From a virus (Duplodnaviria > Caudoviricetes): 64,000 nucleotides of DNA. The first letter of the stretch is position 1; every line of letters starts with the position of its first letter. The stretch covers positions 32,001-96,000 of IMG/VR virus record IMGVR_UViG_3300025372_000010; one strand, 5' to 3'. Below the pieces are notes generated by a model. The model was not told the DNA's origin. It ran no database searches and saw only the letters and a list, made by a program, of their open reading frames with translations. Positions 53,451 to 63,492 of the stretch are shown here, one piece after another. The position numbers were made by a program, and so were the translations under genes.

Positions 53451-53741
53451 ATGGCTGCTTCTACAATAGATAAAATTAAGCTTTGGCTATTTCCAGGCTT
53501 AATGAGTTGCTTAGCTGCTCTTATATGGGCAGATGTATCTGAGATTAAATCAGATGTTAAAACATTAATGGCTGTCTCTATAAAAGATGGTATTAGGATT
53601 GATAATTTAGAAGGAAAGCTAAAAACAGCTTCTATTCCTTCAGCTCCAAAAGATGAGATTCCTTTTATGTTTGAAAGAGTAGCTGTTGTTCCAGATAACA
53701 GATTATTTGCTCAAGCTAAATATATAAAACCACTAAAATAA
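53451..53741 (+). CDS. Membrane-anchored protein (holin/antiholin-like)
   Basis: N-terminal TM segment followed by a coiled coil; in the lysis cassette. Confidence 0.5.
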   Translation: MAASTIDKIKLWLFPGLMSCLAALIWADVSEIKSDVKTLMAVSIKDGIRIDNLEGKLKTASIPSAPKDEIPFMFERVAVVPDNRLFAQAKYIKPLK

Positions 53742-53747
53742 CTTACT

Positions 53748-54017
53748 ATGACATTCAAAGAATGGGTTGTTGATTTATTCAAAGACGAAAGAGGAGCTAT
53801 CTCTATAAAGCCAGTTGTTGCTTTTATGGGAGCTTTATTCTTATGTGTTACATTATGTGCTAACTCTTTTACAGAAGAGAAGTTTAAACCTGCTGATAAA
53901 TTAGTGGACGCTGTAATGGTGATCACTGCTATCGGAATGGGTGCTGACTCATTAGATAAATTCACTGTAAAAAAAGATGTATCTGCACCAGCTGCTGAAG
54001 AAAAATCTGAAGAATAA
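53748..54017 (+). CDS. Putative holin
   Basis: 89 aa; two hydrophobic segments; charged C-terminus. Confidence 0.55.
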   Translation: MTFKEWVVDLFKDERGAISIKPVVAFMGALFLCVTLCANSFTEEKFKPADKLVDAVMVITAIGMGADSLDKFTVKKDVSAPAAEEKSEE

Positions 54018-54643
54018 TGAATAAGATAATGACCTTATTAGTCCTTGCACTAATAGGTATTATCGTTTTAGAGAGAACAGGTTGTAGTGGAGCTCTTGGC
54101 TTACACTCTAAAGCTGACACTCTGATAACGCATGATACCACTTATGAAGTGCATGACAGTCTAATCACTAAAAAGATGGTGGTTAATAATACAGTATTTG
54201 AACCAGAATATATCAAAGGTGATACTAAGTATATTCCAGATACTAACTATGCTGTCCTTAAAGCTCAGTTTGAAGCTCTTGTAAAAGAACATGCTTCTAA
54301 GAATATGTATAAGGATAGTTTGAAGTTAGATTCAATTGGTTATGTAGTGGTTAGTGACACTGTACAGTTTAATAAATTAGATAACAGAGGATATCAATAT
54401 CACTATAGCCTACCTCATTATAACACTACTATGACGATCACTAAACATGATCAGCCAAAGACTCAGTTATATATTGGTGGTGGTATAGATGGTAATAGAA
54501 CATTAGGAATCACAGGAATATCTGCTGGATTACTATTGAAAAACAAAAAAGATCAGATATATGGTTTAAAAGTAGGTACTGACATACATGGACAAATCGT
54601 CTATGGTATGGAGTCTTACTGGAAGATCAAACTTAAAAAGTAA
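54017..54643 (+). CDS. Putative spanin-like envelope protein
   Basis: N-terminal TM segment, 'DT'-rich stalk, C-terminal amphipathic beta-strands ending YWKIKLKK. Confidence 0.5.
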   Translation: MNKIMTLLVLALIGIIVLERTGCSGALGLHSKADTLITHDTTYEVHDSLITKKMVVNNTVFEPEYIKGDTKYIPDTNYAVLKAQFEALVKEHASKNMYKDSLKLDSIGYVVVSDTVQFNKLDNRGYQYHYSLPHYNTTMTITKHDQPKTQLYIGGGIDGNRTLGITGISAGLLLKNKKDQIYGLKVGTDIHGQIVYGMESYWKIKLKK

Positions 54644-54649
54644 TATACT

Positions 54650-54868
54650 ATGAAAAAGATTATTGACTTAATCAAAGCTTTACTTGGTGGTGGTTCTTTA
54701 GCAGAAAAAGCTATAGAGCTTAAACAATTAGAGTCTGCTGTAAAAGAAGAAGTTGCTACTGTAAAAGAAGTGGTAGCTGAAAAAACAGCTGAAGTTAAAG
54801 CTGTTGAGACTAAAGTAGCTAATAAGATAGCTCCTAATAAAAATAACAAACCTAATAAGAAAAAATAA
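54650..54868 (+). CDS. Small Lys/Glu/Val-rich protein
   Basis: 72 aa; 'VKEEV/VKEVV' repeats and a basic tail. Confidence 0.6.
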   Translation: MKKIIDLIKALLGGGSLAEKAIELKQLESAVKEEVATVKEVVAEKTAEVKAVETKVANKIAPNKNNKPNKKK

Positions 54869-54874
54869 AACCCT

Positions 54875-55498
54875 ATGGATTTAAGTAAACTAAAAGGAAA
54901 AGGCGTGCCAGATAGTATCTTAGCGATTCTACCTGAAGCTTTCGCAAAGTATGAAATCAACAGTGTGTTAAGAGCTGCTCATTTTTTAGCTCAGATTGCA
55001 CATGAGTCTGGTGACTTTACAATCAAGACTGAGAGTATGAACTACTCTACTCCTGAGCGTATTGTAGCTATATGGCCTAGCCGTTTTAATTTAGACGGAT
55101 CTAATGGTAAGAAAAACGCACATGATTACATTAAGAATCAAGAAAAACTTGCAGAAGCTGTATACGGTGGCCGTATGGGGAATAACAACCCAGGTGACGG
55201 ATTTAGATTCCGTGGTGGTGGATTTTTACAGCTTACAGGTAAGGACGCATACAAAGGTTATGCTGCTTATCTTGGTAAAACAGTTGAAGAAGCTGCAGAC
55301 TTATTAAGATCTGACAACCACTTTGCATTAGATGCAGCTTGTTGGGAGTATGTAAATAACATGAAACTAAATGCTGTAGCTGATACAGGTTCTAGTGATG
55401 AAGTTATTACAAAAATCACTAAGCGTGTTAATGGTGGTACAATTGGTTTGTCAGAACGAATTAAAGAATTTAAACATTTTTATAGTTTACTTAAATAA
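54875..55498 (+). CDS. GH19-family endolysin
   Basis: 'AHFLAQIAHESG', 'E..NYS', 'YGGRMGN...GDG.RFRG.G.LQLTG', 'TKRVNGG'. Confidence 0.9.
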   Translation: MDLSKLKGKGVPDSILAILPEAFAKYEINSVLRAAHFLAQIAHESGDFTIKTESMNYSTPERIVAIWPSRFNLDGSNGKKNAHDYIKNQEKLAEAVYGGRMGNNNPGDGFRFRGGGFLQLTGKDAYKGYAAYLGKTVEEAADLLRSDNHFALDAACWEYVNNMKLNAVADTGSSDEVITKITKRVNGGTIGLSERIKEFKHFYSLLK

Positions 55499-56193
55499 TG
55501 GATTACCAAAAACACTATAATAAGTTGATGGAATCTAGGTTACTTTTAAAGACTGAAAGGTACCAAGAAAGAAAAACTGGAGGATATTATGAAGGACATC
55601 ATATTATTCCTAAAGCTAAAGGAGGAACTGGAACTAGTACAAGAGGTTTAAATCATCCTAATATAGTTCTTCTCACTGCTCGTGAGCACTTTTTAGCCCA
55701 TTGGTTATTGTGGAAAATACATGGAGATAGAGCTTCTGCGTTAGCTTTTCACAAAATGATGTCTACTAATAAAAACCAAGATCGTATAGTTTCCTCTAGA
55801 GGATATGAAGAAGCTAGATTAGCTTTTTCAGAAACCAATAAAGGAAATCAATATGGTAAAGGAAAAACAAAAGTGGTTACAGAAGAACAAAAGAAAAGAC
55901 AGTCTGAACTTATGAAAGGAAGATATTCTGGACAGAACAATCCTTACTTTGATAAAACTCATTCAGATGAATCTAAAAGAAAAATATCAGAAAAAGCTAA
56001 AGCTCGTCCTATAGAAACTAGAAGTGGTTACAAAGGATTGAAGATAGTTATAAAAGATGGAGTTATATTAGGAGAGTTTAAAGAATCAAATGATATTGCT
56101 AAATTTATAGGATGTTCTCACAGTAACATAAGACATGTACTAGCAGGACATCAAAAAAGTGCAAAAGGATATACTATACAATATAAAAACTAA
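55498..56193 (+). CDS. Free-standing HNH homing endonuclease with NUMOD3
   Basis: 'EGHHIIPK...N.V.LTAREHFLAH.LL'; 'HSDESKRKIS'. Confidence 0.8.
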   Translation: MDYQKHYNKLMESRLLLKTERYQERKTGGYYEGHHIIPKAKGGTGTSTRGLNHPNIVLLTAREHFLAHWLLWKIHGDRASALAFHKMMSTNKNQDRIVSSRGYEEARLAFSETNKGNQYGKGKTKVVTEEQKKRQSELMKGRYSGQNNPYFDKTHSDESKRKISEKAKARPIETRSGYKGLKIVIKDGVILGEFKESNDIAKFIGCSHSNIRHVLAGHQKSAKGYTIQYKN

Positions 56194-56199
56194 CAAACT

Positions 56200-56328
56200 A
56201 TGGCAGGTAAAAAAAGCAGTGCTGATAACCGTAAGGTGACTTTCGGTAAGCGTAAAAGAGGTAAAGCGTCTAAGACGAAAGGACCAAAAGATAAACCAGT
56301 TAAACAATATCAAGGACAGGGTAGATAA
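56200..56328 (+). CDS. 42-aa basic peptide ending YQGQGR (not in ORF track)
   Basis: MAGKKSSADNRKVTFGKRKRGKASKTKGPKDKPVKQYQGQGR*; typical AAACTATG start context. Confidence 0.7.
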   Translation: MAGKKSSADNRKVTFGKRKRGKASKTKGPKDKPVKQYQGQGR

Positions 56329-56346
56329 TTTCTACCCTTTTCTTTT
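56318..56346 (+). terminator. Intrinsic terminator ending the lysis cassette
   Basis: AGGGTAGA-taatt-TCTACCCT followed by TTTCTTTT. Confidence 0.65.
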
Positions 56347-56358
56347 AAAACCACTCGT

Positions 56359-56997
56359 ATGAATATAATAATCAATAGAGCTAAACTATACTTTAGCTAT
56401 TTATTTTTATCCTTATTAGGGCTTTGGTTAGCCTTTGCTTTAGGTCTTTGTTTTTACACTGTAGCTCTTGAGCTTATGGGTAAAGAAGATACATTACAAG
56501 ATATGGCTAACAAGTTTGCTTGGAAGTTTGATGGGACTTTTAAAAACAGTCCTGGTAATATCTGGTATAATGAAAAGCGTATCTCTATAGGTGCTGTGAG
56601 CAATAAAGTTCAGATTGGATCTTTAGCCGGCAACCGTAATTTAGAGTTTGGTATCAAGAGTGTACTAGAAGAAGTCATTCAAGATAAAGGATATGATATA
56701 GATCCATCTTCTAAGAATAACATAGAAGTTGATGTAGTGTACTTAGATGTTCTAAAGACACAATCTAGCTTTTCAGTAATGCATAAAGATAAAGAGTCTG
56801 TTGTAATTAGATTACAAGGAAGACTGTTTAAAGATGGAGAAAAGAAACCAAGTAAGAAGATCCTTGTAGAAGAATCAGCTGATGAAGTGAGTATGTCTAC
56901 TTTGGCTATTGACCAAGGTGGTAAGTTCAATCAAACTAATCTAAGCTCAGCCCTTAAAAAAGCAACTGTATCACTTGTAAATAAACTATTAGACTAA
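56359..56997 (+). CDS. Membrane-anchored protein, possible CsgG/TolB-N-like alpha/beta fold
   Basis: N-terminal TM segment; secondary-structure pattern and 'FNQT.LS.A.KKA' C-terminus shared with 59830-60549. Confidence 0.5.
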   Translation: MNIIINRAKLYFSYLFLSLLGLWLAFALGLCFYTVALELMGKEDTLQDMANKFAWKFDGTFKNSPGNIWYNEKRISIGAVSNKVQIGSLAGNRNLEFGIKSVLEEVIQDKGYDIDPSSKNNIEVDVVYLDVLKTQSSFSVMHKDKESVVIRLQGRLFKDGEKKPSKKILVEESADEVSMSTLAIDQGGKFNQTNLSSALKKATVSLVNKLLD

Positions 56998-58826
56998 TGA
57001 AGAAACTTTTAACGACACTTTTTGCGACAGTTTTAGTATTTATCACGACACTTTCTTTTGCTCAGAATCCTATTAAGTTCAGACTTAGTGCTTCTGTTGC
57101 AACAGATGCTCCTGATACAGTTAAGACTAACACAAATGGTACTCTTTTACATAAAGGAGATCAGTTTGTTGTATACTTATCTGCTAACGGTAATGGTAAC
57201 ACAACCACTAGACAGTTATTATTAGATTTTCAGTATGATAATAGTGCGTTAACTTTAACCTCTATTGCTAATACTGGTACTGGTGGAAATGGTGGTGTAT
57301 TACCTCAAGGGTCAAATGCTCAAGAATCTTTCTATCAATACCCTGGATACTCTTTTCATAAAACTACTCAGAACACTACAAGTAATGGTACCACAAACTA
57401 TCAATACTGTAACTATGATTATACTAGTGGAGGTAGTTCTACCATTGTAAGATATAACCTTACTTGGTCAGGAACTCGTGGAATGCCATATGCTAACTAT
57501 TGGGGATTAATAAAAATGGTTTTTACTGTTAAACAGACAATGACAGGATACCTTATGAATCCGATACAGCTAAACTTTGTTTCAGCTTGGACTGGTACTG
57601 GATCATTAGATGCTACTACTCAGGAAAATCCATTAACTATTAAGCCCTACTTAAATCCTAATGCTGACTCATATGTTAATGCTACTATTGATATTAACGC
57701 TAACATGACAGCTATATCTCCTATGAAAGTGTTATTCCAAGATACAACTACTAAGATGTCTCATTTGTATGATATCACTTCTAATGGACAGGTAAATGTA
57801 AATCAACCAGACTTATCTCCAAACACTGTTTACAGAGTTATGGGTATGGTAAATATGGATAAGCTATATAATGTTTATAATGCTGCTGTCACTGTATCAG
57901 ACTTCACAGGACCTCAGAATGAATTCGTAAGTGCTAACCTAGATGGTACGCCTTCTTATTCAGTTATGACTACAGGACCTAGTTTCTTAGCAGCTGATAT
58001 GAATAATGATAAAGTATTTAATGGATCTGACTTACCAATATTATTAGCAGCAGCTATTGCACAAGATACTCTTGTTAAACTTCCTCCAGGTTATACTCCT
58101 GGAACTAATGGATATATGTCTGTATGGACATTTACTGACACTGTATTTAATAATATGACAACTAGTTCTTGGAAAACTCTAGATCTTACAAAACCAGTAT
58201 ATTTTAAGACAGGTAATGTTGGAGATTATCTACCATTGAATCTTAAGTATTTATTATGGGGGGATGTAAATAGATCTCACTCTTCTCAAGTGATTATTAA
58301 TGGCTCACCAGTATCTAGTGCACTTCCAAGCTTACAAAAGTCTGGACAGTTATCTACGTTTGCTGTTGGATCTAATGCTATATTATTAAATACAACTAGA
58401 GATATACCTAGTATTGATGTAAACTTAGTGAATAATACTGTAACATCTAATACCATTTCTATACCTGTATCAGTTGACACTAAAGGATTATCTCTATCTG
58501 CTTTACAGTTTGAGTTTGAATATGATCCTGCTAAGATATCTTTTGATCAGTTAAGCTTAGGCTTACCTAATACATGGTATTCATTTGTATCTTCTAAAGC
58601 TGGTAAAGTGAAGTTTGGTGCTCTAGATAAATCTCTTATCACTGCTCCTTTAACAGGAGTAGCCACTCCATTCACTCTTAAGTTTTCTACTATAGGTGAT
58701 GGTGTTGATATCTTAACGTCAATCAAAGTTACTGCTACAATGGATGCTTCTGATACAAAGGGTAACCAAGTGGGGATTAACTTAAACACAACAACTATTA
58801 AATTAACTGGATATAACAACTTCTAA
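56997..58826 (+). CDS. Secreted cohesin-/dockerin-like domain protein
   Basis: Sec signal (SFA-Q); two 'DFQYD/FEFEYD' cohesin-like beta-sandwiches; 'ADMNNDKVFNGSDL' and 'GDVN' Ca-loop motifs. Confidence 0.6.
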   Translation: MKKLLTTLFATVLVFITTLSFAQNPIKFRLSASVATDAPDTVKTNTNGTLLHKGDQFVVYLSANGNGNTTTRQLLLDFQYDNSALTLTSIANTGTGGNGGVLPQGSNAQESFYQYPGYSFHKTTQNTTSNGTTNYQYCNYDYTSGGSSTIVRYNLTWSGTRGMPYANYWGLIKMVFTVKQTMTGYLMNPIQLNFVSAWTGTGSLDATTQENPLTIKPYLNPNADSYVNATIDINANMTAISPMKVLFQDTTTKMSHLYDITSNGQVNVNQPDLSPNTVYRVMGMVNMDKLYNVYNAAVTVSDFTGPQNEFVSANLDGTPSYSVMTTGPSFLAADMNNDKVFNGSDLPILLAAAIAQDTLVKLPPGYTPGTNGYMSVWTFTDTVFNNMTTSSWKTLDLTKPVYFKTGNVGDYLPLNLKYLLWGDVNRSHSSQVIINGSPVSSALPSLQKSGQLSTFAVGSNAILLNTTRDIPSIDVNLVNNTVTSNTISIPVSVDTKGLSLSALQFEFEYDPAKISFDQLSLGLPNTWYSFVSSKAGKVKFGALDKSLITAPLTGVATPFTLKFSTIGDGVDILTSIKVTATMDASDTKGNQVGINLNTTTIKLTGYNNF

Positions 58827-58828
58827 CT

Positions 58829-59221
58829 ATGAAAAGATTCTTTAACATTTTTGTTGACACTCTTATTGTATTGTCTTTAATACTATTTGTATTTATTAGC
58901 TGCAGAAAAACTGTTGGAGTTGATCCAGTGGTAGCTGCAGGTATAGATCTTGGTAAAACATCTACTAGTACTAGTATTAAGACTTTTTCTCAAACAGGTA
59001 GTACAGTAACTATGGAGTTTGCAACAACTCCAGGAGCTAAATACTCTGTACAGTTCACTCCGTTTGCATTAGATAATACAGTGAAGACTGATAAGTTTAC
59101 AGCTACAGATACTGTAACTAAAAAGATATATGATTTAAGTGATCTTCCTAAAAAAGACTATGATGTGCATTTTATTGACATCCAAGGTAAGGAAGACAAG
59201 CATCCAGTAATAATTAAATAA
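58829..59221 (+). CDS. Lipoprotein with Ig-like domain
   Basis: Lipobox 'FISC'; beta-rich C-terminus 'DLSDLPKKDY...K..IIK'. Confidence 0.6.
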   Translation: MKRFFNIFVDTLIVLSLILFVFISCRKTVGVDPVVAAGIDLGKTSTSTSIKTFSQTGSTVTMEFATTPGAKYSVQFTPFALDNTVKTDKFTATDTVTKKIYDLSDLPKKDYDVHFIDIQGKEDKHPVIIK

Positions 59222-59229
59222 CTATAACT

Positions 59230-59583
59230 ATGGCAACTAAAAAGCAACAAGAGCCAGAAGATAAAATGGCTAAGAACGAAAAGCATAATGACGGTACAAT
59301 GACTGGTTTAAAGAAGACAATCATTGGTACAATATCTACTCTAGTAGTAGGTGGTGGTACTTTCTTAATGTCTTACTTACAAAAACCAAAAGAAGATGCT
59401 AATAAAACAGCTCAGCCCGCTATCAATATTAACATCCCAGCTCAACAACAAGCTCAGTCTACAAAGACAGTCATTGTTAAAGAAGGGTCTAGTTCAGCAG
59501 CAAAGCCAGTTGAAAAACCAGCAGTTGCTAAACCTAAAAAGAAAGAAGGAGATGAATTCAAAGAAGAAGCTCCTAAGTGGTAA
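59230..59583 (+). CDS. Single-pass membrane protein
   Basis: Central TM segment; Lys/Pro-rich tail. Confidence 0.6.
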   Translation: MATKKQQEPEDKMAKNEKHNDGTMTGLKKTIIGTISTLVVGGGTFLMSYLQKPKEDANKTAQPAININIPAQQQAQSTKTVIVKEGSSSAAKPVEKPAVAKPKKKEGDEFKEEAPKW

Positions 59584-59614
59584 CGAAACTTAAACTCTAT
59601 GGACTTAGATAGTT

Positions 59615-59833
59615 ATGACAAGAAACAAACACAAACGCTTAGTATTTTTCAAAGAGACATCTCTGATGTTGGCAATGTTCTTTCTACCATTTGGCTACGA
59701 TGCCTTGTTCAAATGGATTATGGATCTTACAGGAAGTTATTGGGCCGCAGATGCAGTCTTTTATTCTATTTCAGGGCTATTCTTTTTGTCTTATATATTA
59801 TTAAGCAGATCCTTAACTAAACATTACAAATGA
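59615..59833 (+). CDS. Small two-TM membrane protein
   Basis: 'AMFFLPFGYDALF..IM..TGSYW.AD..FY'; ATGA overlap with the next gene. Confidence 0.6.
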   Translation: MTRNKHKRLVFFKETSLMLAMFFLPFGYDALFKWIMDLTGSYWAADAVFYSISGLFFLSYILLSRSLTKHYK

Positions 59834-60549
59834 AATATCTTATTGTATTAATAGCACTATGTTTTGTAACTGTAATAAAGTGTCATGGTCAAATAGCTAA
59901 GACCTCTACAGAGAACTATAAAGCTAGTTTTGAGAAGTCAATCGACATCTCTCAGTTTATGGACTATGACGGTCCACAGATTCCTATACAGATACTAAAG
60001 TGTGGAATTAATGATGAGATGTATGAGATGTATCCTGAGCTTAAAGAAAAGCGTGTAGGACTTGGTGTAGCTAACATCTCTATGGAATATTTAGAGAATC
60101 TTAATAGATTCAAGTTTACTGAGGATAAAACAGAGATAAAGAACCGTATGGTTAAGCAGTTTCAAGCTAGCCAAGCAGGTATCTCTGAAAATAAGCTAGA
60201 TGGTCGTGGTAAGATCAATCTAGCTAAATACTTTGTTACTATAGAATGCTATGACTATTCTGTATCAGAAGATGAAACAGTATCAGCTAAGCTATCTACA
60301 AGCCAGTTAATGGTCACTAGGATCGGTTTACAGGTCAGATTTACTGACGCTGAGACTGGTGTAGTTTTTTCTGGATCTGGCCTTGGTGAGGCTAAAACCA
60401 CTAAAGAAACATCAGGATTATCTGACGCTAGTCTAGATCCTGTTAAATTTAATCAATCGACCATATCTATTGCTACAAAGAAGGCTTTGGATATAGCTTG
60501 TTCTCGTATATTGGATAGAATGGTAAAGAAAGGAATCTTTACTAAGTAA
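59830..60549 (+). CDS. CsgG-like (curli secretion channel fold) protein
   Basis: Signal peptide; 'GLGVANI..EYL..NRF...E', 'AKYFVT', 'IGLQVRFTDAETG..FSGSG.G' pattern. Confidence 0.65.
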   Translation: MKYLIVLIALCFVTVIKCHGQIAKTSTENYKASFEKSIDISQFMDYDGPQIPIQILKCGINDEMYEMYPELKEKRVGLGVANISMEYLENLNRFKFTEDKTEIKNRMVKQFQASQAGISENKLDGRGKINLAKYFVTIECYDYSVSEDETVSAKLSTSQLMVTRIGLQVRFTDAETGVVFSGSGLGEAKTTKETSGLSDASLDPVKFNQSTISIATKKALDIACSRILDRMVKKGIFTK

Positions 60550-61940
60550 TGAAACAGTTTATATTATCACTAATACTAGTAGTAATACTACCAATATATG
60601 CGTTCTCACAAACCATTGTACAAGTTTTTCAAGATCCCTGTACAAAGATTACTAGTACTTTTGTCATACCTGTTAGTGGTAGGACTACTATTGTGTTCTA
60701 TAATAAGTCAAGGAGCTTTTCTGCTGCTGACGTGGCCAGCGGTGCTTTTCAAACGTGGATTAACCAAGTATATGAAGACTATAAAGCCTATTCTCCTTGT
60801 TCTGTTTCTCAAGTGTCATCAACTGCTACACAAGTTACAGCCTCTGCTGTATCCTCTGCAGTAAGTACTGCTGTATCTGCTGCAACATCTGCAGCTGCAA
60901 GTGCGGCTGTAAGTTCAGCTACTGCCGGTGCAGCCTCAGCAGCCACATCTAGTGCTGCTTCTTCTGCAGCAAGTTCAGCTGCAGGCTCAGCTGCTTCTAG
61001 TTCTGCAAGTAGCTCTGCCACCAGTTCATCGGCCTCCACCTCTTCTGGGGGAAGTACTTCTGAATCTAGTAGCAGCAGCTCATCAAGCAGCTCGTCACAA
61101 AGTGAGGGTAATTCTTCCTCCTCTTCTTCAGATAGTAAGGGTAGTTCCTCTTCATCATCTGATTCTAAGTCTGAATCTAAATCAGAATCTAAGTCTGAAA
61201 GTAAATCTGAGAGCAAATCTTCTAGTAAAGAGTCTAAAAAAGACTCTAAGTCTAGTAATAAGTCTCAGGCTAAAATGAATCCTATTATATTCAACTCTGA
61301 TCTCACAGGAGGCCAGAATATGGATAAGTCTATTGCTTTGGTTGCTAGTGGAGGTATGTCACAGTCTTCTATGACTGGAGCAGACTCTTGGGGCATTAGT
61401 GCTATGGCATGGAGTAATCTCCAGCAGTTTGTACTATCTAGTAGATATACTAAGATGAACTTTAATAATGGTAAGATGGAGAGTATATCCAACTGGGGAT
61501 TTACTACAGCTCTTATGTATGGTAATTTAACTAGTTTTATTACTTATGCGTATATATACCCTATGGGTAACTACGGGGTGACAGGGGCCAACTACACACT
61601 CACTTTTTCTAAATCTTCCTATCTAAAGAAAGATGGTACCTCTGATAAACAGTGGGTGCTATCTCATTCTATGATGTTCTTTTACACAAAACCTTTTAGT
61701 CTTTCTAAAAGACTCACACTTGGTCCAGAACTTTATGTTTCAGGTAGTCCGGTTACCTATAATACTAAAGAAAATATATTTGTAGAATCCCATGATATAG
61801 GATTCTTTACTGGTATCTCTGGTGATTATGCTATTACTAAGAGATTTAAGTTTAACATGGGTTTGAGAACTAGTGCTAATACTAATCCTCAAGTACCCAT
61901 GCTATTCTTTATGGTAGTAGGTTCTAAAATAAACTTATAG
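60549..61940 (+). CDS. Secreted protein with Ser/Ala-rich linker and C-terminal beta-barrel-like domain
   Basis: Signal peptide (AFS-Q); two-Cys N-domain; about 150-aa S/A/SESK linker; alternating hydrophobic strands to the C-terminus. Confidence 0.65.
   Translation: MKQFILSLILVVILPIYAFSQTIVQVFQDPCTKITSTFVIPVSGRTTIVFYNKSRSFSAADVASGAFQTWINQVYEDYKAYSPCSVSQVSSTATQVTASAVSSAVSTAVSAATSAAASAAVSSATAGAASAATSSAASSAASSAAGSAASSSASSSATSSSASTSSGGSTSESSSSSSSSSSSQSEGNSSSSSSDSKGSSSSSSDSKSESKSESKSESKSESKSSSKESKKDSKSSNKSQAKMNPIIFNSDLTGGQNMDKSIALVASGGMSQSSMTGADSWGISAMAWSNLQQFVLSSRYTKMNFNNGKMESISNWGFTTALMYGNLTSFITYAYIYPMGNYGVTGANYTLTFSKSSYLKKDGTSDKQWVLSHSMMFFYTKPFSLSKRLTLGPELYVSGSPVTYNTKENIFVESHDIGFFTGISGDYAITKRFKFNMGLRTSANTNPQVPMLFFMVVGSKINL
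60815..61265 (+). repeat. Low-complexity Ser/Ala and (SESK)n coding repeats
   Basis: Degenerate 12-nt repeats, e.g. tctaagtctgaatctaaatcagaatctaagtctgaa. Confidence 0.8.
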
Positions 61941-61944
61941 TTTA

Positions 61945-63492
61945 CTATACCGTATTACCATTTGCGTCAACTTTTTTGATAGTTGACCCATTAAATATGA
62001 TTACCTGCGATGCATCAGAATACTTTTTGATAGTTTCTTTCTGAAAACTATCAAATCTAGCTCCTTGTACACCGATAAAGAAAACTCTCTCAGAGTAAAT
62101 ATTACAATGATCTTCTGCGTCAGTTAATATGATAGCATTTCTATCGTTACTTACAACTTTTTTTACAGCCTCATTGATTGTCGTACCGCCATTACAATCT
62201 AGCATAGCTAAACTAATTGTATCAGACTTATACTTCTTTACAGAGTTATTAAATACATACACTTCGTTAAGCATATCCATCTCTGCAAGCTTAACAGCGA
62301 ATGACTTTGCAAAATCGATACAGCTGATGTCGTTGTTATCTTCATCTTTTATACCAGAGCTACCAGACATAGATCCGGAAACATCGATATATAAATCAAG
62401 CTTACCAACACTCTTAGTATCTTTTACTACTATATCATCTACCATTACTTTTCTAAGCTTAGGATGTAAGAATTCATATTCTTCCAATCCAGCTATGTTA
62501 TCACTGTTAAAGATATCTTCATAGATAGTTTCTTTTCTACTAGAGAAATAGCTAGCAGATTTATCTAAAAGCTTTTTGATTCTCTCTTTAACAGAGCCCA
62601 TAGACATCTTAAGCTTGTTTAATCTTTGACTAACAGTTCTAATATAATCAGGACTTAGATTACCAGCTTCTTTACCACCAGATTTATGAGCTTCGTCAAA
62701 CATTTGTTGTTGAGTCTCTTTATCAATGCTTTCATCAATAGACTTACAAGTGTCTTGAGCATCTTTAAGCATGTCATCCATCATGTTTTTACTAAGCTGA
62801 TTGTTCATCATCTTATCTAAAGCTTCATCTATTCCTTGATTATCAAAGTCAGAACTACCTCCAAGACCTTTACCGATCTTATCAGCATCTTCTTTATCAA
62901 CATATTCCATCATAGTAAGCTGCATAGAATAATACAACATCATGTTCCTAGTAAAGATAGCAGACTTTAGAGCACTGCTCTCAGCCATAATCTTACCTAC
63001 TGGATTATTACTCTTCTCTAAAAACTTATACTTAGTATAGTTTTTATCATCTCTGTCTTCAAACTCAAGCTTCTCAATCTTAGAATAATACATCTTATAT
63101 ATATCGTTCTTTAAATGAGCTGGAATACTTCTATAAGTATCCTGTAGCTTTTTATTAAAACTAGGCCAGTCTGGTTTCTTATCTTCATCTAGTCTTTTGA
63201 ACTTTGCACTCTGAGCAAACTTGTTATAAAACTTATTTACCTCAGATTGATTAGTGACATGTGTTTTACATATACTAGATAATCTATCCTCATCTATATA
63301 ATGCATATACGGTTTAATAAGATCTGCTTTCTTATAAAAGTTAATCTTACCAAATAAACCATCGCCTTGCTTATAGTGAGTTGGGATTTCACCCTTCTTT
63401 ACTTTCTCTAATATGGTATAAACATTCTTATATTGTTTACCACCACCTGTTTGTATTCTCTCACCTGTAGTGAGACTTCTTAAGTTAGCCAT
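61945..63492 (-). CDS. VWA (MIDAS) domain protein, ViaA-like
   Basis: 'YIDVSGSM', 'NGGTTI', 'ILTDAED'. Confidence 0.85.
   Translation of the reverse strand: MANLRSLTTGERIQTGGGKQYKNVYTILEKVKKGEIPTHYKQGDGLFGKINFYKKADLIKPYMHYIDEDRLSSICKTHVTNQSEVNKFYNKFAQSAKFKRLDEDKKPDWPSFNKKLQDTYRSIPAHLKNDIYKMYYSKIEKLEFEDRDDKNYTKYKFLEKSNNPVGKIMAESSALKSAIFTRNMMLYYSMQLTMMEYVDKEDADKIGKGLGGSSDFDNQGIDEALDKMMNNQLSKNMMDDMLKDAQDTCKSIDESIDKETQQQMFDEAHKSGGKEAGNLSPDYIRTVSQRLNKLKMSMGSVKERIKKLLDKSASYFSSRKETIYEDIFNSDNIAGLEEYEFLHPKLRKVMVDDIVVKDTKSVGKLDLYIDVSGSMSGSSGIKDEDNNDISCIDFAKSFAVKLAEMDMLNEVYVFNNSVKKYKSDTISLAMLDCNGGTTINEAVKKVVSNDRNAIILTDAEDHCNIYSERVFFIGVQGARFDSFQKETIKKYSDASQVIIFNGSTIKKVDANGNTV

Follow-up and report, generated by a model that had tools for sequence, protein, structure and literature searches.

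Curli (type VIII) secretion uses CsgG as its channel through the outer membrane, and two amphipathic hairpins from each CsgG subunit together build a 36-strand barrel. Single phage proteins also alter host surfaces, for example as receptor blockers or O-antigen modifiers. Zaragoza-Solas et al. (2020, PMC7029224) described csgG/csgF clusters in pelagimyophages, the function of which is unknown according to the authors, and Bellas et al. (2020, PMC7468147) reported variable cargo genes tagged for secretion by the type IX system (T9SS) in the cryoconite phage 'Cryophage'. In this study, we analysed a window of 64,000 nucleotides from an uncultured lake virus of the Caudoviricetes (bases 32001-96000 of the 112,862-bp IMG/VR record IMGVR_UViG_3300025372_000010; CheckV completeness 87%), which contains a cassette of seven genes, here called g1 to g7, encoding exported and membrane proteins. 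We read it tentatively, at a little under an even chance, as an accessory cassette common to unrelated Bacteroidota phages, by which infected cells would receive in their outer envelope a phage-made assembly presenting a variable binding protein. Our literature search found no paper describing this cassette, and the published precedents cover parts of it only, namely the phage csgG/csgF clusters and the phage T9SS cargo.

A sequence-only reading of the window had proposed seven co-oriented genes for cell-envelope proteins at 56359-61940, and this layout was confirmed: all seven open reading frames (ORFs) lie on the plus strand at those positions (Table 1), and every product bears a signal peptide, a lipobox or a transmembrane segment. 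Overlapping stop and start codons, also part of that reading, were found at three junctions, as one-base TAATG overlaps at g1/g2 and g6/g7 and a four-base ATGA overlap at g5/g6, while the remaining gaps measure 2 nt (g2/g3), 8 nt (g3/g4) and 31 nt (g4/g5). The terminator that it had placed ahead of the cassette corresponds to a terminator-like hairpin just 5' of g1, which divides the cassette from lysis genes and a small basic ORF. Under a strict hydrophobicity cut-off, 10 of the 58 ORFs in the window encode a membrane-type segment, and eight of these ten lie within the plus-strand block 53451-61940, an island flanked by two minus-strand blocks.

These export signals bear on the idea that the products are ordinary virion or tail-fibre parts with hydrophobic N-termini. 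Some distant lectin-bearing g2-like proteins were at first read without a signal peptide, in line with that idea, but those start calls may have been wrong and the same proteins bear signal peptides when given proper starts. Export signals were seen on 7/7 products, one product is a lipobox lipoprotein and one a transmembrane beta-barrel, neither of which belongs in a virion, and searches of PHROGs gave nothing above noise for the cassette proteins, structural families included. We therefore hold this explanation to be very improbable.

The cassette recurs in many viruses. With g6 as the query we retrieved 499 viral contigs, mostly from lakes, and the best 80 of these 499 were analysed as loci (designated by L and a number) with a profile built for each gene; only loci with enough flank were counted, hence the varying denominators. 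Alongside g6, g7 was present in 80/80 loci, g4 in 75/81, g2 in 68/73 and g1 in 50/54, and the one-strand order g4-g6-g7 was kept in 76/78. The corresponding counts were 58/78 for g3, 33/81 for g5 and 31/54 for the endolysin. The core thus consists of g1, g2, g4, g6 and g7 (92-100% co-occurrence in these loci), with g3 and g5 as accessory members. This recurrence in related viral loci argues that the cassette is not a chance run of genes, and the co-conservation across viral contigs that the sequence-only reading had proposed as a check was indeed observed.

Among cultured phages, the Flavobacterium myophage vB_FspM_immuto (NC_055915, 160 kb) carries the five core genes as gp015-gp019, with the order kept. 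Our profiles matched gp015 (cohesin) at E 1.8e-15, gp016 (g4) at 2.5e-20, gp017 (g6) at 5e-85, gp018 (g7) at 5e-22 and gp019 (g1 domain) at 3.9e-10, and gp017 shares 52.5% identity with g6. Apart from lectin and cohesin domain labels, these core genes are annotated as hypothetical. The immuto version differs from that in the window in having a short cohesin protein, the C-terminal residues of which resemble the end of a T9SS sorting domain by eye with no profile match, in encoding separate lectin proteins (gp013 and gp014), and in having neither g3 nor g5.

In a search of 50,697 phage records, tblastn with g6 found the immuto phages only, and neither blastn with the whole cassette nor tblastn with g7 and g1 gave a match. 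A single-protein scan of 185,579 species genomes (bacteria and archaea) turned up almost no close relatives of g6; the two matches, on short contigs of metagenome-assembled genomes labelled Thiobacillus and Micavibrio, are read as mis-binned phage DNA. Through a lipoprotein form of g6, viral contigs of a third, unclassified group were reached. They keep a triad of g6, a short g7 and the g1 domain, adjoining a 949-aa protein with Cohesin and Por_Secre_tail matches and a 281-aa barrel-looking protein.

The presence of a CsgG-like protein, as the sequence-only reading had claimed, was upheld for g6 through its family and its predicted fold. As a single sequence g6 had no Pfam match at E<=1, and a sequence search of the PDB gave noise only. 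A search of 1.84 billion representative proteins yielded 200 relatives, and in an alignment of 42 members Pfam CsgG (PF03783) was found in 18/42 (best 3.7e-23) and LpoB in 9, while the family profile matched E. coli CsgG at E 0.0012. The AlphaFold2 (AF2) model of g6 has a pLDDT (predicted local distance difference test) of 82, and its top Foldseek matches are the CsgG structures 4uv2, 4uv3 and 6l7a (E 4e-7 to 1e-6). In VIA, the model matched CsgG 6lqh_A with Z 12.7 and a root-mean-square deviation of 3.1 Å over 179 residues, followed by Cj1090c (Z 11.0), PelC (9.5-9.6) and LptE (~8). Its best structural neighbour among viral proteins is from a phage and carries the annotation CsgG. Judged from profile and model, g6 is a remote and divergent member of the CsgG superfamily rather than a clear member of the family.

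The CsgG-like pore of the earlier reading found no support in the form in which it was put forward. The signal peptide of g6 is predicted to be cleavable and ends ...TVIKCHGQ, with Lys at -1; there is no lipobox, and most phage homologues are without any signal cysteine (...SYGQT, ...AAAQT), although more distant relatives do bear lipoboxes. The long strands of the model span residues 134-151, 157-173 and 179-194. Compared with the first CsgG hairpin, its counterpart in g6 is ~6 residues shorter and has a tip, SVSEDETVSAKLS, with Glu-Asp-Glu, and the second-hairpin region (195-208) is short, polar and of low confidence in the model. The CsgG constriction YPASNF aligns to YPELKE(K) in the g6 family, in which Tyr-Pro is kept and Asn-Phe is lost. 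The constriction-equivalent loop, YPELKEKRVGLG, is nearly invariant in the family (P69, L71, G77, G79).

At the protein level, g6 is 85% identical to 13 syntenic relatives versus 48-64% for the neighbouring genes, the endolysin and g2 among them, while at 4-fold degenerate sites its identity is 0.58 versus 0.39-0.59 for the neighbours. Since the protein is so well kept while its 4-fold sites have diverged, g6 is under strong purifying selection. This selection is unusually strong for an accessory phage gene, and g6 is the most constrained gene of the cassette. Recent horizontal spread was considered as the source of this conservation and rejected, as the 4-fold sites are nearly as diverged as those of the neighbours.

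The gene that overlaps the g6 stop codon, g7, matches the outer-membrane barrel with a Ser-rich stalk of the sequence-only reading, as the model places a 12-strand barrel behind a Ser-rich linker. A predicted cleavable signal peptide (...AFSQ) is followed by a small domain with two invariant cysteines, a helix, the linker and the barrel (Table 1). Foldseek matched the barrel, the strands of which span residues 246-462, to NanC, FapF and KdgM at E ~1e-7, and VIA to NalP (Z 22.6), EstA (20.4), the COG4313 channel (19.9), FapF (19.5) and KdgM (17.4); NalP and FapF are barrels that conduct polypeptides. The VIA alignments to NalP, EstA, Hbp and AIDA-I also cover helix 84-131 (for NalP, model range 80-463). 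That this helix is included in the alignments with autotransporters and with FapF suggests, at low confidence, that the model may place it in the barrel lumen. Between helix and barrel lie about 110-115 residues of disordered linker; in relatives the linker turns Glu/Lys-rich and is highly variable in length, and the 328-aa form of the third contig group has hardly any of it. Such wide variation in length indicates a flexible tether and not a fixed-length strut. Pfam Autotransporter and FapF were not matched by g7 or 30 relatives, which hit unrelated families only (one member, DUF5777 at 7e-4).

The neighbours of g6 and g7 could also point to a polymer secretion channel of the curli, Fap or Pel type, in which a g6 ring and the g7 barrel would export an amyloid-like or glycan glue, comparable to the 'sibling capture' idea for pelagimyophages. 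CsgG and PelC are the best structural neighbours of g6, and g7 has FapF among its best matches; g6 and g7 overlap at their stop and start codons, a phage csgG/csgF cluster has been published (PMC7029224), and a GT2 glycosyltransferase-like protein (seen as N-terminal sequence only) is encoded inside the cassette of locus L073. However, the seven proteins include no curlin-like or Fap-like repeat subunit, g6 seems to lack the membrane hairpins of CsgG and does lack its Asn-Phe constriction, the window's cassette has no polysaccharide synthase, and 12-strand barrels with a helix in the lumen are narrow. CsgA, CsgB, CsgE and CsgF were not recognisable among the seven proteins with Pfam, PHROGs or NCBIfam, which agrees with the earlier statement that this is not a standard curli operon. 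We consider a polymer channel quite unlikely.

The presentation of a binding protein would depend on g2, which has a predicted cleavable signal peptide (...SFAQ). Its residues 485-592 matched Pfam Cohesin (PF00963) with 18.3 bits and E 0.0028, below the cut-off of 24.1, and the same family was found in 12/16 relatives (best 1.4e-7), that of L003 reaching 25.4 bits, above the cut-off. We assign the C-terminal region of g2 as a cohesin domain on the strength of these profile matches. Mean identity to the relatives is 0.41-0.47 over the first 480 residues versus 0.64 in the cohesin bin. The sequence-only reading had called this protein cohesin/dockerin-like, and the cohesin part of that claim stood, while the dockerin part came down to one calcium loop of the dockerin type at residues 334-345 (DMNNDKVFNGSD; D-x-N-x-D-x3-N-x2-D) followed by a helix, seen in 10/16 relatives. 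Dockerin_1 (PF00404) was found neither in g2 (E<=1) nor in the 16 relatives (E<=0.01), and two tandem repeats were not found. An invariant GDVNRSHSS motif occupies residues 422-430.

C-type lectin domains occur in three of the 16 relatives of g2 and an LCCL domain in one, and in one the cohesin is followed by a T9SS sorting domain. The neighbours of g2 in the ESM Atlas are all viral clusters and bear Cohesin (23-85%), Dockerin_1 (28-36%), Lectin_C (~60%) or Por_Secre_tail (72-98%). T9SS sorting domains occur on the cohesin relatives of L078 (residues 553-635) and L087 (residues 855-890), whereas g2 itself has no match to Por_Secre_tail (PF18962), its C-terminus being the cohesin and then ...KLTGYNNF. 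The surface or secretion apparatus that had been proposed from the sequence fits such comparative data, for example the sorting domains and lectin heads of the sister proteins. Downstream of the cohesin proteins, L052:4003-4896 and L087:6592-7437 encode proteins of 281-297 aa with a signal peptide and barrel-type ends (...GTNFQF, ...SFGFDL); they have no Pfam match and could be candidate PorP/SprF-like partners of T9SS cargo.

The lipoprotein named in the sequence-only reading is g3, with the lipobox FISC, and it is a lipoprotein in every homologue. It consists of a predicted beta-sandwich of ~90 residues, like a T9SS C-terminal sorting domain, and ends ...DYDVHFIDIQGKEDKHPVIIK. In the Atlas, a sibling viral cluster has 55% Por_Secre_tail, and TM scores of 0.53-0.67 were obtained to Bacteroidota proteins bearing this domain; weak Pfam Por_Secre_tail matches occur in only 4/25 members of the g3 family (best 0.0014). 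It suggested that g3 may have a fold like that of the T9SS sorting domain, the likeness being weak.

A g3-like lipoprotein is absent where the cohesin protein bears its own sorting domain (the L078, L087 group), and also from immuto, in which the C-terminal end of the cohesin protein is sorting-domain-like by eye. In L044 and L052, two cohesin proteins without sorting domains are followed by two small lipoproteins, and L073 has one small lipoprotein beside two cohesin proteins, where a second may be masked by an overlapping reverse-strand ORF. From this presence/absence pattern we infer that g3 is likely a partner or anchor of the cohesin protein. The narrower proposal that g3 is a sorting domain split from an ancestor with both cohesin and sorting domain was set aside, as the profile match was not significant and its support comes down to the same pattern.

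The resemblance of g3 to a sorting domain leads to another explanation, a superinfection block on the T9SS and gliding surface of the host, in which lipid-tethered g3 and its partners would jam or re-route the T9SS so that receptors are not surfaced. Two reports (10.1101/2020.10.02.323337, PMC9804748) describe mutations in gliding-motility and T9SS genes as a common route to phage resistance in Flavobacterium, and such mutations imply that T9SS-dependent surface proteins matter for adsorption. This resistance of T9SS and gliding mutants, the likeness of g3 to a free-standing sorting domain on a lipid anchor, and the fact that sister cohesin proteins are T9SS cargo would all agree with a block. 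But the sorting-domain likeness is weak, g3 is accessory (58/78 loci) and missing from immuto, the PADLOC defence models matched 0/7 cassette proteins, and the invariant g6-g7 core would be left unexplained. We regard such a block as distinctly unlikely.

The first gene, g1, encodes an N-terminal membrane anchor (~residues 14-37), a conserved WKxDGxFKN..NIWY segment and a YajG/Lipoprotein_16-like periplasmic domain at residues ~75-212. Residues 85-149 matched Pfam Lipoprotein_16 (PF03923) with 28.3 bits (cut-off 25) and E 1.7e-6, and there was a weak match to NCBIfam PRK11627. The lipoprotein signal is absent, a long membrane anchor being fused on in its place. This is a gene fusion, as the membrane piece and the domain are separate genes in many relatives (L037, L039, L052, L053 and others), where a membrane protein of 68-77 aa ending ...WKIDGTFKNNPDNIWYE and a domain of 153-179 aa with its own signal peptide are sometimes far apart. 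The sequence-only reading had noted a C-terminal motif common to g1 and g6; it is real (BLASTP E 0.001) but short and confined to the last helix (31 profile columns, hhalign probability 11%), and homology between g1 and g6 beyond this motif was not established. Searches of the PDB with g1 (single sequence and profile) and with the g3 and g7 profiles gave noise or low-complexity matches only.

The product of g4 is predicted to be a small type II inner-membrane protein, with a 28-residue cytoplasmic head, a Gly-rich membrane segment at 30-50 and a Pro/Ala/Lys/Gln-rich periplasmic tail. Across the 63 homologues read, the last 16 residues of g4 are near-invariant (C-terminal peptide KKKEGDEFKEEAPKW), and a docking role is suggested for them. 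Two membrane segments were found in g5, which is restricted to the closest clade and had no family match in Pfam, PHROGs or NCBIfam. Another ORF, 59599-59820, was tried as the fifth gene and rejected, as it shows 37% identity to relatives versus 59% for the 59615-59833 frame.

Taken together, the data suggest the following arrangement. The g7 barrel would be inserted in the outer membrane and hold the two-cysteine domain by a flexible tether, and g6 would be a soluble periplasmic protein, probably a CsgG/PelC-like ring, docked at or under this barrel. The YajG/LptE-like, inner-membrane-anchored g1 and the anchor g4 with its C-terminal docking peptide would tie the complex to the inner membrane. 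The payload would be g2, its conserved cohesin end held by the g3 lipoprotein or the tethered g7 domain, and its variable part, which carries C-type lectin or LCCL heads in sister phages, would bind glycans or neighbouring cells. Sister phages would ship the g2-type protein via the T9SS of the host. How g2 crosses the outer membrane here is the weakest step; it may pass via the g6-g7 pair, or it may stay periplasmic. The benefit would be receptor masking, so that neither other phages nor the phage's own progeny after lysis are adsorbed to the cell; alternatively, infected cells would stick to future hosts. We favour a re-dressing of the surface because of the lectin heads, the faster divergence of the N-terminal part of g2, and the mapping of Flavobacterium phage resistance to gliding and T9SS genes in the reports cited above.

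Several observations weigh against this arrangement. Without the lipid anchor and hydrophobic hairpins of CsgG, g6 may not sit at the membrane. By its sequence, g2 of this phage lacks a recognised outer-membrane export signal. Sorting domains on fused relatives were not matched significantly by the g3 profile (seven sequences; best E 0.036). Autotransporter-style export of the g7 N-domain is disfavoured, as its conserved cysteines lie 53 residues apart. Finally, holin-like and endolysin genes adjoin the cassette in the clade of the window, which also fits a role in lysis.

Such a role is our main rival explanation, in which the cassette is an outer-membrane lysis accessory that takes the part of spanins, and, once the endolysin has done its work, a trans-envelope link made by g4 and g1 with g7, g3 and g6 would break or fuse the outer membrane. 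To our knowledge, spanins are not recognised in Bacteroidota phages. In the window and ~35 relatives the cassette, holin-like and endolysin genes form one co-oriented block, in which no known spanin family was found (PHROGs, Pfam). A homologue of the 89-aa holin-like protein is encoded inside the cassette of the divergent locus L052, and the type II membrane protein g4 beside the lipoprotein g3 is loosely like an i-spanin/o-spanin pair. However, the cassette of immuto is surrounded by genes of replication and nucleotide metabolism (for ribonucleotide reductase, helicase and nuclease) and is placed ~7.7 kb upstream of the endolysin, and an endolysin is near g6 in only 31/54 loci, both of which weaken this explanation. 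Moreover, no use in lysis is apparent for the cohesin and lectin proteins, which are large and evolve fast, the terminator-like hairpin parts the cassette from the lysis genes here, and the periplasmic tail of g4, being Pro/Ala/Lys/Gln-rich, is by eye not an obvious coiled coil. We consider a lysis role unlikely.

The order of the lysis genes in the window is kept in ~35 related loci. Homologues of the exported 208-aa protein with 25-31% identity are encoded 3' of g7 in other clades (e.g. L031, L047); its position relative to the cassette thus shifts between clades, and functionally it may be one of the set. The homing endonuclease, which starts at the endolysin stop codon, was found in 0/80 related loci and for this reason is taken to have inserted recently at its place between endolysin and small basic ORF. 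The latter is conserved in ~35 syntenic relatives (46-74% identity, placed between endolysin and g1), which indicates that it is a real gene. On the other side of the cassette, a convergent gene on the minus strand (61945-63492) encodes a 515-aa protein with 53-59% identity in relatives; its DxSGSMSG motif resembles the metal-binding site of von Willebrand A domains, and Pfam, PHROGs and NCBIfam gave no match above noise.

Table 1. Positions of the cassette genes, of the parts of g7 and of the genes preceding the cassette (nucleotide positions are those of the window).
Feature	Position	Strand	Remarks
g1	56359..56997	+	212 aa
g2	56997..58826	+	609 aa
g3	58829..59221	+	130 aa
g4	59230..59583	+	117 aa
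g5	59615..59833	+	72 aa
g6	59830..60549	+	239 aa
g7	60549..61940	+	463 aa
g7, small strand-plus-helix domain, two invariant cysteines (C31, C84)	residues 22-84		alignment and AF2 model
g7, Ala/Ser-rich helix	residues 84-131		model pLDDT 54-65
g7, disordered linker, Ser-rich then Ser/Glu/Lys-rich	residues 132-241		alignment and AF2 model
g7, 12-stranded outer-membrane beta-barrel (predicted)	residues 246-463		AF2 pLDDT 70-91
Terminator-like hairpin and T-run	56318..56338	+	consensus scan (8-bp stem, 4 G-C pairs), sequence read directly
Lysis-type genes (context, outside the cassette)	53748..55498	+	co-oriented with the cassette
Small membrane proteins	start 53451 and 53748	+	product of 53748: 89 aa, two membrane segments, holin-like
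Exported 208-aa protein	54017-54643	+	5' of the endolysin
72-aa Lys/Glu-rich protein		+	between the 208-aa protein and the endolysin
GH19-like endolysin	54875-55498	+	weak Pfam Glyco_hydro_19 match, E 0.015
HNH/NUMOD homing endonuclease	55498-56193	+	Pfam NUMOD3 3.3e-6; I-HmuI NUMOD-like 6e-4
42-aa very basic, non-hydrophobic ORF (14 Lys/Arg)	56200-56328	+	stop inside the terminator-like hairpin

Some further genes were seen in or beside the cassette in single loci. A non-specific DNA/RNA endonuclease with a signal peptide (L044:10782-11384; Pfam Endonuclease_NS, 6e-22) adjoins g7 in a divergent relative, and gp012 of immuto (L082) is a NUC1-type nuclease directly 5' of the lectin gene. A secreted nuclease may sometimes belong to the cassette. 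In divergent relatives, GT2 glycosyltransferase-like and metallophosphoesterase-like genes occur at L073:6501-7995 and L044:26-772 (N-terminal sequences only), and the adjacency of the glycosyltransferase-like gene to the gene of a Ser-rich exported protein hints at glycosylation.

A more far-reaching explanation, which we find doubtful, is that the g6-g7-g1-g4 core is a virus-borne, self-contained machine for the export or display of proteins at the outer membrane, independent of host secretion, that presents exchangeable lectin or cohesin adhesins on a cell soon to be lysed. If true, it would be a new kind of host-surface manipulation by phages and possibly a new secretion route. Our preferred reading, in which a fixed multi-protein envelope assembly bears swappable binding heads, would, if true, still place such manipulation at a different level from the single phage proteins that alter host surfaces. 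It would then bear on how abundant Bacteroidota phages of freshwater and marine habitats avoid superinfection or the loss of progeny to debris, and on how they find the next host. The cultured pair of Flavobacterium sp. LMO8 and phage immuto makes the question of the cassette directly testable.

Compared with known systems, the cassette resembles the pelagimyophage csgG cluster in that a CsgG-fold protein, g6, is phage-encoded in a small operon of exported proteins. It differs in the absence of CsgF, CsgE and curlin, in the partners of g6, which comprise a separate 12-strand barrel along with YajG-like and cohesin proteins, and in the hosts, which are Bacteroidota for the cassette phages and SAR11 for the pelagimyophages. 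From CsgG itself g6 is set apart by the missing lipobox, the shorter and charged hairpins and the loss of the Asn-Phe constriction.

PelC-PelB and FapF offer another likeness, as a CsgG/LptE-type periplasmic protein is paired with a dedicated outer-membrane barrel, and in g7, as in PelB and FapF, an N-terminal part and a linker precede the barrel. The cassette shows no sequence relationship to the Pel and Fap systems, and it has no PelB-type TPR, polymer synthase or amyloid subunit; unlike the lipoprotein PelC, g6 has no lipid anchor, and its ring is putative. The order of signal peptide, N-domain, helix and 12-strand barrel in g7 is that of the type Va autotransporters (NalP, EstA, Hbp, AIDA-I), from which g7 differs by its long disordered spacer between helix and barrel, the low confidence of the helix, the two cysteines of the N-domain and the lack of a Pfam Autotransporter match.

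With its cohesin and one dockerin-type loop, g2 is reminiscent of cohesin-dockerin surface scaffolds such as the anchoring scaffoldins of the cellulosome type, although no enzyme cargo and no full two-repeat dockerin were detected. As in the Cryophage cargo, the sister cohesin proteins bear T9SS sorting domains, and in addition lectin heads, while g2 of the window is untagged. The cargo genes of Cryophage are single genes in flexible islands, whereas here the cohesin protein belongs to a fixed multi-gene cassette with CsgG-like and barrel partners.

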